From: Candidatus Eiseniibacteriota bacterium | Lineage (GTDB): Bacteria; Eisenbacteria; RBG-16-71-46; CAZAMP01 | Length of the DNA: 64,000 nt | Direction of reading: 5' to 3' | Assembly: GCA_965224245.1 (NCBI GenBank) | Contig: OZ245046.1 | Span: 4,000,001-4,064,000 of the forward strand | Part shown: positions 20,092-23,252 of the stretch, piece by piece | How the letters are laid out: each line of letters opens with the position of its first letter | How positions within the stretch are numbered: the first letter of the stretch is position 1 | The notes under the pieces: model-generated | Told to the model about the DNA's origin: nothing | The model's database searches: none | The model's input: only the letters and a program-made list of their open reading frames with translations | Position numbers and translations under genes: made by a program

Positions 20092-21972
20092 ATGGATCCA
20101 GATCGAGCGCCGGCACCCAGCACGTCCGACGGGCGTCGAGGGGACGCGCGCGTGATCGATCTGGTCGTGTTCCTGGCCGCGCTCCTGGCCCGGCTCGCTC
20201 ATCTGTGGGCCTTCACGGCCCTGGCCTTCTACCGGCTTCCGTTCGGAGACGCCGCGACCTTCGCGCGCGAGGCGGCCGGATTCCTCGGCGGCGGCCTGTT
20301 CACCCGCGGCGATCCGTTCTTCCAGGGTCCGCTGTATCCGCTCGTGCTGGCCGCGATCGGCCTCGCGTCGCTGCCGGTGACCGGCATGTACTGGCTCCAG
20401 GTGGTCATCGGATCGGTGACCGCGGTGATGGTGGCCCGGATCGCTCGCCATCTCGTGCGCCTGCCCTGGGCGGGGCTCGTGGCGGGTCTGGCCTACGCGT
20501 TCTACGACGCGGCGATCTTCTTCGACGCGGACCTCCTGGCGGTGTCGCTCGTGACGTGCCTGGCCGCGACCGCGCTCGCGCTCACGACGCGGGCGCTCAC
20601 CGCACCCGAGGAGGCGGTCGGACGCGCCCGGGTGGTCGCGATCGGCGTGCTCTTCGCGCTGTCGGCCTGGGGACGGCCGAATCTCGTGCTGCCGGTCGTG
20701 CTCGTGGTGGGATGGCTCGTCTTCCGGGCGCCGTGGCCGGGAGCGAGACGGCGGCTCCTCGCGCTGTCCGCGCTCACGGTGCTCCTGATGCCGCTGGTCC
20801 GGAACACGATCGTCTCCGGGGATCCGGTGTTCATCGCGTCCAGCGGCGGCGTCAACTTCTTCATCGGCAACCACTCCGGTGCGACCGGCACGTTCCGCAT
20901 CCCGCCCGGGTCCGGGCTGGCCAACGACACCGAGCTGGATCGGATCTCGCGCGCCGTGGCCTCCCGGATGGAAGGCCGGCCGCTGAGCGCGGCCGAGACG
21001 TCTCGCTACTGGTTTCGCCGCGGCCTCGACGCTCTGACGGCGGATCCGATCGCGGCGGCGAGGCTCGTGGGCCGGAAGCTCGTCCTGTGCCTGAACGCCG
21101 CGGAGATCCCGAACCATCTCGACCTGACGTTCGTCCGCGAGTACTCGCCGGCGCTCCGCTTCGCGCCGGTCCGGGCGTGGATGCTGCTCGCGCTGGGGGC
21201 GGCGGGCATGTGGCTCCTTCGCGGGTACCGCGGCGCGACCGCGCTTCAGCTGTTCGCGGCCGGGAACGTCCTGTCGATCCTCCCGTTCTTCGTGACGGCG
21301 CGCTTCCGCCTGCCGATGATGCCGGTGTTCGCGGCGTTCGCCGGGTCGCTCGCCGTGTGCGTCGTCCACGCCGCTCTCCGCCGCACGATCCCGGCACGCG
21401 ACTGGGGTCTCACCGCGGGAGTGGGCGTCGCGGTGACGGCGCTGTCCCTCGCGACGCGACTACCCGCCGCCAGCCACGCGGTTGCCCACGTCAACCTCGG
21501 CGCGCTGCATGCCGAGCTGGGTCAGACCGAGCGCGCTCGACGAGAGTTCGAGGCGGCGCTCGCGCTGGAGCCGCGCGATGTCCGCGCGCTGGAGAACCTG
21601 GCCGTCCTGGACGTGCGCGCGGGCCGCCACGAGGCCGCGCTCGAGCGGGTGGACGCGGCGCTCACCGGCGTGCCCGAGTCGTTCCGGCTGCACAACCTGC
21701 GGGGAATCGCGCTCGGAGAGCTCGGCCGGTACGACGAGGCGCTGGATGCGTTCGATGCCGCGCTCGCGCGGTTCCCGGGGTGGCCGGAGGCCCGTCGCAA
21801 CATCGAGCTGACGTGGTCGCACTATCTCGCCCACGTGCGTCGACTCGGTCGCGAGGCCGGTCTGCCCGACCCCATCGATCCGGAGTCGAAAGGCCGGTGG
21901 GTCTCGTTCCTGGAGGGCAGAGGATTCCGGCGTGCGGCCGAGCGATTCGCGCGTGAGGCCACGGCCGGCTGA
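20092..21972 (+). CDS. GT-C (ArnT/PMT-like) glycosyltransferase with C-terminal TPR repeats
   Basis: Polytopic N-terminal region (GDAATF, PLYPLVLA, RPN, GGVNFFIGN, FFVTARFRLP) followed by TPRs (AHVNLG, ALENLA, HNLRGIAL). Confidence 0.8.
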   Translation: MDPDRAPAPSTSDGRRGDARVIDLVVFLAALLARLAHLWAFTALAFYRLPFGDAATFAREAAGFLGGGLFTRGDPFFQGPLYPLVLAAIGLASLPVTGMYWLQVVIGSVTAVMVARIARHLVRLPWAGLVAGLAYAFYDAAIFFDADLLAVSLVTCLAATALALTTRALTAPEEAVGRARVVAIGVLFALSAWGRPNLVLPVVLVVGWLVFRAPWPGARRRLLALSALTVLLMPLVRNTIVSGDPVFIASSGGVNFFIGNHSGATGTFRIPPGSGLANDTELDRISRAVASRMEGRPLSAAETSRYWFRRGLDALTADPIAAARLVGRKLVLCLNAAEIPNHLDLTFVREYSPALRFAPVRAWMLLALGAAGMWLLRGYRGATALQLFAAGNVLSILPFFVTARFRLPMMPVFAAFAGSLAVCVVHAALRRTIPARDWGLTAGVGVAVTALSLATRLPAASHAVAHVNLGALHAELGQTERARREFEAALALEPRDVRALENLAVLDVRAGRHEAALERVDAALTGVPESFRLHNLRGIALGELGRYDEALDAFDAALARFPGWPEARRNIELTWSHYLAHVRRLGREAGLPDPIDPESKGRWVSFLEGRGFRRAAERFAREATAG

Positions 21973-22252
21973 CCCCCGCGGCCGGCCCCGGCACGCGCTC
22001 GGCGGCCCTGCGGTGGGCCGGAAGCCCGCTTTCCAAATTCACGAGATCGCCGACCCTGACGCGCCGATCGGAGATCGGTCCACGGATGCCCCCCACGCCC
22101 GCGGCGAGATCCGCAAGTCGTTGCGAATGGGACCCATCGAGAGAACGCCACGCGACCCCGCCGGGGCCCCGGGGACGAAAATGTCGATCTCGAGGGTCGC
22201 ATCGGGCGGAAATTCGGTGGCTCTCCGCCCCGGCGCGTAGTAGACTCCCTCT

Positions 22253-22365
22253 CGCATGGCTGACTTCACGATTTCGCCCCCTGGTGTTCTCGTGGATCTC
22301 GTCACCTGAGAATTAGGTGGTTCGGTCCCTTGAGATTCACGGTTTCCCGGGGGGCTTTTTCGTGG
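22253..22365 (+). ncRNA. Candidate structured RNA (sRNA or cis-acting leader), family not recognised
   Basis: Four nested helices; three contain a G-U pair that is valid only on the + strand. A -10-like TAGACT lies at 22241-22246 and T5 at 22356-22360. Confidence 0.5.
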
Positions 22366-22394
22366 CCCCGAACGTCCCATCCCGAGCGCGCCCG

Positions 22395-23252
22395 ATGACG
22401 ACGACACCTCCTCGACGACCGGCGGATCGGCTGATCATCCGCTGGCGAGGCCGGACCGCGCTGGTCGCCGAATCGGAGTTCGAGGCCCTGGTCAAGGCGG
22501 GGCTCATCCCGCCCGACGCCTGGGTCGTCTCCCCCACGTACACCCGCGGCCACGCCATCCAGGCCGACGACATGGAGGTCTTCCACCTCTGGAAGCCGGA
22601 CGACGAGCCCCCCAGCCCACCCGAGCCGTCGGTCTTCTCGGACATTTACTTCGCCCGGCCGATCTCGCTGACGCTGGTCCTGATCGCGGCCAATCTGGCC
22701 GTGGCCGCGGCGCTGATCCTGCGATGGGGGGAGGCCTACCCCTACGCACTCCGGCACTGGGCCGGCGAGATGAAGCCCGCGGTCGCCCATCTCGGCGATC
22801 TCGTGCACCTCGGTCCGCCGGTCTTCGTCCACGCGTCGCCGGCGCATCTGTTTGGCAACCTCTTGTACCTGTTCGTGTTCGGAGCATGGGTCGAACGAGT
22901 GTTCGGTGCGCTGGGCATGGCCGTGATCTATCTGGTCGCCGGCTACGCGGGGGCGATCGCGTCGTACCTGCTGCTGGATCACCCGGCGCTGTCGGTGGGC
23001 GCGTCCGGGGCCATCTTCGGGCTCATCGGGGCAACGTTCGTGTACCTCGTCCGGCACCACCGCGAGTTCCACCGACGTCTGGCCTGGCGGGCTCGCCGGA
23101 TCTACATCCCGCTCGTGATCGCGGTGGCCGCGTACTCCCTGACCGGCGGCAATCTCTGGGCGCACGGCGGCGGTCTCGTCGGTGGCGCGCTGGCGGCCTG
23201 GCTGATCGACGTCGTCTTCCCGCGTCGCGACGTCTTCGCGTCCGATCGGTAG
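22395..23252 (+). CDS. Rhomboid-family intramembrane serine protease
   Basis: FVHASPAHLFGNL, catalytic VGASGAIFG, AHGGGL. Confidence 0.92.
   Translation: MTTTPPRRPADRLIIRWRGRTALVAESEFEALVKAGLIPPDAWVVSPTYTRGHAIQADDMEVFHLWKPDDEPPSPPEPSVFSDIYFARPISLTLVLIAANLAVAAALILRWGEAYPYALRHWAGEMKPAVAHLGDLVHLGPPVFVHASPAHLFGNLLYLFVFGAWVERVFGALGMAVIYLVAGYAGAIASYLLLDHPALSVGASGAIFGLIGATFVYLVRHHREFHRRLAWRARRIYIPLVIAVAAYSLTGGNLWAHGGGLVGGALAAWLIDVVFPRRDVFASDR

Follow-up and report, generated by a model that had tools for sequence, protein, structure and literature searches.

A conserved structured RNA upstream of a rhomboid gene in Candidatus Eiseniibacteriota and its proposed place in a phylum-wide family of small RNAs

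A structured RNA element was identified on the + strand of a 64,000-nucleotide stretch of DNA (hereafter the window) from the genome of a Candidatus Eiseniibacteriota bacterium, between a gene encoding a TPR protein and a gene encoding a rhomboid protein. The element is modelled as an RNA gene at approximately 22255-22360 with a length of roughly 85-105 nt. Its structure is real and strand-specific, its base pairing is conserved with compensatory change, it occurs in a single copy, and it is independent of the neighbouring genes. We conclude with considerable confidence that it is a real, conserved RNA gene that stands alone. The best explanation overall, with a probability somewhat above one half (about 0.55), is that it is a regulated small RNA (sRNA) and a divergent local member of a previously unannotated family found throughout the phylum. 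In the following, the genome of the window is called G000, other genomes are numbered likewise, and families of the phylum are designated f1, f2 and so on, G000 belonging to f1.

The region 22241-22375 was folded on both strands by minimum free energy (MFE), with 200 shuffled sequences as the control. The MFE fold of the + strand is a nested rod of -54.9 kcal/mol, compared with -43.3 +/- 3.7 kcal/mol in the shuffles (z -3.16; 1 of 200 shuffles folded as well), whereas the minus strand reached -43.8 kcal/mol (z -0.98; 32 of 200 shuffles as good). Several G-U pairs of the + strand would be A-C on the minus strand, which fits the weaker fold there and bears out the strand asymmetry that the initial annotation of this locus had pointed to. 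The MFE and centroid structures are identical, and one fold dominates the ensemble.

All helices listed in the initial annotation were recovered in the MFE fold. The basal helix, P1, pairs 22276-22284 with 22347-22355. Its 5' strand, GCCCCCUGG, holds the family-invariant CCCUG (22279-22283, pairing with 22348-22352), including the U of an invariant U-G wobble (U22282-G22349), and its 3' strand, CCGGGGGGC, defined by the fold and by the family alignments, holds the invariant GGGG. On the 5' side of the internal loop (22285-22290), the invariant C22289, which pairs with G22342 in the family model, is followed by a one-nucleotide bulge, U22290. The middle helix, of 12 bp in the MFE fold (22290-22301 / 22331-22342), consists of the family-wide P2 helix and an f1-specific extension, with its 5' strand at 22291-22301 (CGUG of P2 at 22291-22294) and its 3' strand at 22331-22342, which ends in the family-invariant ACGG (CACGG at 22338-22342). 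Above it lies a lineage-specific apical hairpin at 22302-22320, in which 8 bp (22302-22309 / 22313-22320) close a GAA loop. The one-sided bulge that follows, UUCGGUCCCU, had been described as 12 nt long; it is present, with a length of 10 nt in the fold (22321-22330), and its unpaired UCCC-type motif is a candidate effector or seed. A U5 tract is located directly 3' of P1 (22356-22360, the T5 of the initial annotation), and P1 together with this tract resembles an intrinsic terminator and is probably the 3' end of the RNA; a simple terminator scan did not list it, the loop being too large for the scan rule. The outer helix CACGA/UCGUG of the fold (22267-22271 / 22360-22364) overlaps the U-tract, has no counterpart in the related genome described below and probably does not belong to the functional RNA.

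G001, which represents a sister genus and was the only other genome of family f1 compared, carries the element at the syntenic place. The flanking TPR and rhomboid proteins of the two genomes are 51% and 53% identical, respectively, and the spacers between these genes (428 and 592 nt) could not be aligned except for one island, 22267-22367, in which 76 of 105 positions are identical. Pairwise structural alignment showed that 26 of 26 predicted pairs were kept and that three adjacent pairs of the middle helix were changed on both sides (A-U to G-C, U-A to C-G, and C-G to U-A), while the 10-nt bulge and its flanks form a run of 18 nt identical in both genomes. A 17-codon open reading frame (ORF; 22256-22309) that opens at ATG 22256 and encodes MADFTISPPGVLVDLVT before its stop codon is present in G000 as annotated. 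The initial annotation had left it open whether the structure or the peptide is conserved, and it is the structure that was found in G001 and not the peptide: the aligned position in G001 lacks an ATG, and the reading frame of the conserved stem differs there. The ORF is accordingly judged, from the sequence comparison, to be a chance ORF that is not part of the element.

Relatives of the element were searched for with covariance models. Model R1, made from the two f1 sequences, matched weakly (29.9 bits) in G004, with a second similar rod 150 nt further. Model R2, made from four sequences of f1 and f4 and restricted to the shared basal helices, gave matches 103-120 nt long, mostly one per genome, in 34 of 151 genomes of the class. 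A third model (R3) was built from a MAFFT alignment of 28 sequences (A6). It matched 113 of 151 genomes of the phylum at an approximate E-value of 0.01 or less (112 of 150 without the unpublished G053), including 91 of 118 high-quality genomes, and 52 of 72 genera. The frequency of matches varied with the family, from 56/60 in f9, 31/32 in f8, 6/6 in f17 and 5/5 in f11 to 1/12 in f16 and 0/5 in f13. In the control phylum, that of G173, which holds 'Acidobacteria bacterium Mor1', R3 gave one weak partial match (22.3 bits) among 151 genomes, and in five genomes of other phyla it gave none. The membership of G000 was tested without circularity, and R1 recognises the family RNA in other lineages: a search of 36 loci of other families (151 kb) with R1 at E <= 10 gave 14 matches, 13 of which lay exactly on the family RNA and on the right strand.

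The alignments indicate that the family consists of a sequence-invariant basal rod and a lineage-variable apex. The basal rod comprises P1 (CCCUG/YGGGG with a fixed U-G), a C-G pair, a one-nucleotide bulge and P2 (CGUG/CACG), and G000 has each of these features, with U22290 as the bulge. Sixteen columns of A6 are invariant, forming the words G..CCCUG, C..G, CGG and GGGG..C. For the basal structure of 21 pairs, 84.6% of the cells in A6 were paired, compared with 37.5-55.3% when the 3' partners were slid by 1-3 columns, and twelve pairs were changed on both sides, compared with 2-7 in the slid controls. When A6 was shuffled 500 times, no shuffle reached four of the five measures, and the fifth was reached by 17 of 500. 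In a larger alignment of 82 sequences (A7), which was fitted to the model and therefore leans towards the structure, 91.5% were paired compared with 39-51% in slid controls. Covariation of base pairing, which the initial annotation had proposed to look for among homologs, was thus found in both alignments. All 82 aligned members have the U-G wobble of P1. Three C-G pairs occur in 80-82 of the 82, and the C-G pair of the internal loop (C22289-G22342) in 28 of 28 sequences of A6 and 75 of 82 of A7; other P1 positions alternate between U-A and C-G among members. The 'internal loop' is closed into a helix by compensatory change in several lineages (UUCC/GGAA, UGCC/GGCA, ACUC/GAGU). The apex differs widely between families, and on the predicted structures G000 and G001 have the most reduced version of it.

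Two paralogs with the same basal rod and different apexes were observed in the f11 genomes (G011, G018, G031 and G037; for example L050 and L137). One type has GAUCCCCC and a motif like that of sigma-54 promoters; the other has CUCCCUU and does not have that motif.

Genes next to the RNA at the loci of representatives were conserved only inside families and none across families. In f9, genes for Opp-type ABC ATPases lie upstream and an aldehyde dehydrogenase gene downstream; in f8, the RNA is accompanied by a divergent tRNA gene and a convergent gene encoding a GAF-SpoIIE phosphatase; and neighbours elsewhere include genes for an OPT transporter (f11), an RNase R-like protein (f2) and a P-type ATPase (f18). 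In the f8 loci (such as L065:1220-1303 and L065:1722-3116) the tRNA is always 84-86 nt long, divergent and located approximately 130-250 nt upstream, and the GAF-SpoIIE (PP2C phosphatase) gene is always convergent. Proteins of the GAF-SpoIIE kind function in the control of sigma factors by partner switching. In G004, two tandem family members (L015:1501-1601 and L015:1756-1862) lie 150 nt apart in a spacer of 640 nt, whose flanking genes, for a sigma-54 activator/response regulator and for an M20 peptidase, run on the opposite strand; a TTGACA-type hexamer precedes the first copy. The sigma-54 activator gene was considered as a constant neighbour of the family and rejected, having been seen only in G004.

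Promoter-like motifs were found upstream of the RNA in several families. In 25 of 25 f8 loci, P1 is preceded at a distance of 40-54 nt by GGAACTTT-N-(C/A)GTCTAA, whose spacer measures 16 nt and whose shape we take to be that of promoters for extracytoplasmic function (ECF) sigma factors. In three genomes the exact motif was found nowhere but at the RNA, so that no regulon can be defined from it. The motif (T/C)GGCA(C/T)-N5-TTGC, presumably a sigma-54-dependent promoter of the -24/-12 type, was matched at 9 or more of 11 positions in f9 (22/30, with at least 8 of 11 in 29/30), f18 (2/2), f2 (1/1), f7 (1/1) and f11 (2/7), and in none of 82 reverse-complement controls. In G000 and G001, the best matches to it reached 6/11 and 5/11, respectively, and the ECF-like geometry of f8 was not found in these two genomes either. 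They share a GAAAT..GTGG(C/A)TC block (AGAAATCAGTGGATC in G001) located 17 nt before a -10-like hexamer. This hexamer is TATAAT in G001, at a different distance from the stem, and in G000 it is TAGACT (22241-22246, as given in the initial annotation), which resembles the consensus and does not by itself locate the start site. The block GGAAATTCGGTGGCTC (22208-22223) upstream of the element in G000, read from the sequence, is a possible promoter or operator.

A U-tract directly follows P1 in f1, f4, f5, f11, f2, f15 and f17, and a separate terminator hairpin is located after the rod in f8 and f9. In f9 (for example L110:2626-2720 and L049:1619-1710) this second conserved, long hairpin (GGGCCC ... 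GGGGCCC) starts approximately 10 nt after the rod and is followed by AUGA and a U-run, with an inner sequence that is conserved within the genus g16. It is probably the real terminator there, in which case the f9 RNA would be about 200 nt or longer. The ATG after the second hairpin was considered as a conserved start codon and rejected, as the translations were short and unrelated.

The preferred explanation for these results is a stand-alone, regulated small RNA. The RNA would be transcribed alone, ending at P1 and the U-tract, and would act in trans as a regulated riboregulator, in which the basal rod may serve as a scaffold for stability, termination or protein docking and the unpaired C/U-rich apical element (UUCGGUCCCU in G000) may act as the effector by pairing with Shine-Dalgarno-like, G-rich regions of mRNAs. 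This trans base-pairing mechanism is put forward tentatively. It is suggested by apical UCCC-type stretches that are predicted to be unpaired in f1, f2, f3, f9 and the second f11 type (23 of 27 representatives covered). In the G000 genome, GGAG is located upstream of 18.1% of first ATGs compared with 8.0% of internal ATGs, which indicates that the genome uses G-rich Shine-Dalgarno-like motifs. The paralogs that have the same base and a changed apex also fit a design of scaffold plus seed.

Several observations weigh against the preferred explanation or parts of it. Conservation in the family is strongest in a helix and not in a single strand, which is unusual for sRNAs that act by base pairing and at least equally compatible with a protein-binding RNA. 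It does not extend across families to the apical 'seed', with no clear UCCC motif in f8, f17, f5 and f7 among the same 23 of 27 representatives, and Hfq (PF17209) was not found in G000. Transcription and both ends of the RNA are predictions; simple sigma-70 scans found no consensus promoter for G000 or G001, and the promoters proposed for the other families are putative ones, matched to general consensus patterns. In G000 the RNA may also be co-transcribed with the TPR gene that precedes it, or transcription may read through into the rhomboid gene. With regard to family membership, the E-values of the covariance models are rough, their calibration having been shortened, and a sequence-only hidden Markov model made without f1 and f4 missed the G000 element and gave four weak matches elsewhere (E 0.078-5.6). 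It is thus the covariance models that connect G000 with the wider family, and G000 was itself among the seed sequences of one of them (R3).

Foremost among the alternatives is a protein-binding or protein-sequestering RNA, in which the invariant rod would be a sequence-specific docking site for a protein, the RNA would act as one half of a phylum-wide ribonucleoprotein or as a decoy (like 6S, Y RNA, GlmY or CsrB), and the apex would be secondary. The invariance of the rod, including the wobble and the three C-G pairs described above, exceeds the needs of pairing; the RNA usually has a single copy, occurs in 91 of the 118 high-quality genomes and in this resembles a housekeeping-type RNA; and the apex varies freely between families and is what changes between the paralogs of f11 and G004, while their base is kept. 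No partner protein is indicated, however, as no neighbouring gene is conserved across families and neither Hfq nor a TROVE/Ro protein was detected in G000. A CsrA homolog is encoded in G000 outside the window (C1:1318139-1318294, 82.5 bits), but the RNA does not have the repeated GGA loops of Csr sponges, and a reading of the element as a CsrA sponge was dropped for that reason. The promoter motifs of alternative sigma factors, moreover, argue for a conditional and not a constitutive RNA. Protein binding at the rod is a doubtful but serious possibility, and base pairing through the apex was ranked slightly ahead of it.

A bolder form of this idea, which we consider unlikely, is that the RNA is the RNA subunit of a phylum-wide ribonucleoprotein, that is, a lineage-specific 'fifth housekeeping RNA' beside signal recognition particle (SRP) RNA, 6S RNA, tmRNA and RNase P, whose expression would have passed to sigma-54, ECF or other promoters in different families and whose exchangeable apex would set its specificity.

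It is improbable that the element serves the rhomboid gene in cis as a 5' leader or attenuator, whether or not the 17-codon peptide takes part, with termination at P1 and the U5 tract gating transcription of rhomboid. The order TPR gene - RNA - rhomboid gene is common to G000 and G001, in G000 the rhomboid ATG is located 34 nt after the U-tract on the same strand, and no separate rhomboid promoter was seen in the scan. In the mechanical ORF list (22317-23252) the rhomboid gene begins within the RNA, at GTG 22317, but comparison with the aligned G001 protein favours ATG 22395 as the start, which leaves no overlap between gene and RNA. In G001, however, the RNA and the rhomboid gene are separated by a convergent, opposite-strand RNase_T/WYL gene that encodes 356 amino acids, so that the RNA cannot be a leader of rhomboid there. 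This gene (L010:1610-2680, minus strand) encodes an RNase_T exonuclease fused to a WYL domain and is missing from the corresponding position in G000. The short ORF is not conserved, an alternative anti-terminator pairing is not evident, the MFE and centroid structures being the same, and the families sampled elsewhere have the unrelated neighbours described above (Opp ATPases, aldehyde dehydrogenase, OPT transporter, RNase R-like protein, P-type ATPase and PP2C phosphatase), with no rhomboid gene among the annotated neighbours of the representative loci outside f1. A leader function for the whole family is thus largely refuted, and the leader-peptide attenuator suggested in the initial annotation is not supported; a cis role on rhomboid by read-through may exist in G000, but it would not be the conserved function.

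Even less probable is that the element merely serves the TPR gene upstream as an intrinsic terminator, or is a GC-rich hairpin formed by chance. A GC-rich stem is indeed followed by T5, and high-GC genomes generally fold well, but the element lies approximately 300 nt after the TPR stop codon (approximately 490 nt in G001), is the sole alignable island of the spacer, and extends over 80 nt with positions that are invariant in sequence across the phylum, while the relatives have promoter-like motifs of their own and those in f8 and f9 also have a further terminator hairpin beyond the rod.

A dispersed repeat, such as a repetitive extragenic palindrome (REP) or a miniature inverted-repeat transposable element (MITE), or a divergent copy of a housekeeping RNA (6S, SRP or Y RNA) can practically be dismissed in spite of the rod shape, the size near that of SRP or Y RNAs and the faint resemblance to anti-hemB, because the element is present once in 6.9 Mb and the canonical SRP and 6S RNAs are encoded elsewhere. 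A BLAST search of the element against the 6.9-Mb genome returned the element itself and ten fragments of 15-38 nt (E >= 0.23), and R1 and R3 found one copy each in G000; the possibility of a dispersed repeat, raised in the initial annotation, was rejected on these grounds. No Rfam match was obtained at gathering thresholds across the 64-kb window, and a permissive search of 21900-22700 gave anti-hemB (RF02837) as the best match, with 15.9 bits and an E-value of 0.61, far under its gathering score of 49.5, and it was rejected. At 16 family loci, Rfam at gathering thresholds matched only nearby tRNAs, and at E <= 1 the matches at 8 family loci were three tRNAs and two chance matches elsewhere. 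Bacterial small SRP RNA (RF00169) had no match in the window, and its canonical copy is located at C1:465376 (72.6 bits). The compact 6S-like mimic suggested in the initial annotation did not hold up either: 6S RNA (RF00013) had no match in the window, the canonical 6S RNA is located at C1:1389857 in G000 (66.2 bits) and was also found in five of five relatives tested, and the rod has a one-sided 10-nt bulge, as opposed to the central, two-sided bubble of the approximately 180-nt 6S RNA. A Y RNA or YrlA was rejected, as no TROVE/Ro gene (PF05731) was found in G000 (97% complete) and Rfam gave no match. The remaining suggestion of the initial annotation, a novel sRNA, is the one that agrees with these results: no known family was matched, and the element is in a single copy, conserved with covariation, and stands alone in varied gene contexts.

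Several other searches and matches contributed no further members. A scan for the exact motif GGTTCGGTCCCTT-N12-24-GGGGGGC returned 12 loci in genome contigs, of which only the G001 record matched the model, and 15 in metagenome contigs, none of which did. Three regular-expression descriptors were neither specific nor sensitive: one gave 5 matches compared with 8 in the control, one found 5 of 78 members, and one found 23 of 78 members with 2 genome matches compared with 4 in the control. BLAST matches of 38 nt in G008 and G015 lie inside a peptidase-like coding region and were attributed to chance, and L071 and L072 (68-70 nt, GC 0.73) were set aside as probably false. The match in G070 (L016), a two-strand palindromic repeat-like hairpin, was also set aside. 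This locus (L016:1430-1575) contains a near-perfect palindrome, CGCCCCCTGGGC...GCCCAGGGGGC, that scores on both strands with R1 and has a partial second copy approximately 70 nt upstream; it is REP-like and unrelated to the family.

The element is regarded as belonging to a new, previously unannotated RNA family of a known kind, the bacterial small RNAs, in an uncultured phylum. The phylum is known only from metagenome-assembled genomes. No RNA biology was found described for it among the literature naming Eisenbacteria; a survey of CsrA names the phylum in passing (PMC13443453). As the RNA is present in about three quarters of the sampled genomes and has an invariant core, with motifs like those of alternative-sigma promoters in several families, it provides a ready-made new family for databases and a marker for annotating genomes of the phylum. 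It also offers an entry point to regulation in an uncultured lineage, in particular to what sigma-54 or ECF signalling controls there. At the locus itself the annotation is corrected, the element being neither a rhomboid leader nor a small peptide gene.

The known systems nearest to the element in behaviour are the sigma-54-dependent, sigma-E-dependent and C-rich-motif sRNAs, none of them related to it by sequence or by model. The element differs from leader-peptide attenuators in that it has no conserved short ORF and no evident alternative pairing, and in that an opposite-strand gene intervenes in G001, and from Hfq-dependent sRNAs in that Hfq was not found in G000. Like 6S RNA, SRP RNA and Y RNA it is rod-like, usually in a single copy and widely conserved in its lineage, but no covariance model of these matched it, it has no central two-sided bubble, canonical 6S and SRP RNAs are located elsewhere, and no TROVE/Ro gene was found.

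Small RNAs with C-rich motifs include RsaE/RoxS of Firmicutes and the UCCC-motif sRNAs of Staphylococcus. The family resembles these in its length of approximately 100 nt, its 3' terminator, the predicted unpaired UCCC-type apex in f1, f2, f3, f9 and one f11 type, and the use of Shine-Dalgarno-like G-rich motifs by the genome, whereas Rfam gave no match, some members of the family do not have the motif, and the invariant basal rod has no counterpart in RsaE.

Small RNAs that depend on ECF sigma factors or sigma-E include MicA, RybB and MicL of enterobacteria. No homology to them was found, the motif is not present in G000 or G001, and the sigma factor of f8 is a candidate only, but in f8 the RNA likewise stands alone with its own terminator hairpin, and 25 of 25 loci have GGAAC-N16-(C/A)GTC at a fixed distance from it.

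Sigma-54-dependent sRNAs are represented by Qrr1-4 of Vibrio, GlmY of enterobacteria, CrcZ of Pseudomonas and Pxr of Myxococcus. The family has no sequence or Rfam relation to these, G000 and G001 do not have the promoter motif, no Hfq was detected, an activator gene does not adjoin the RNA in annotated representative loci outside G004, and the conserved part is a helix, not a single-stranded seed. On the other hand, the RNAs of both groups are free-standing and approximately 100-200 nt long, with paralogs that share a scaffold; the two copies in G004 adjoin a sigma-54 activator gene; and in f9, f18, f2, f7 and part of f11 the RNA lies behind a motif of the TGGCAC-N5-TTGC type with the GG-N10-GC arrangement.

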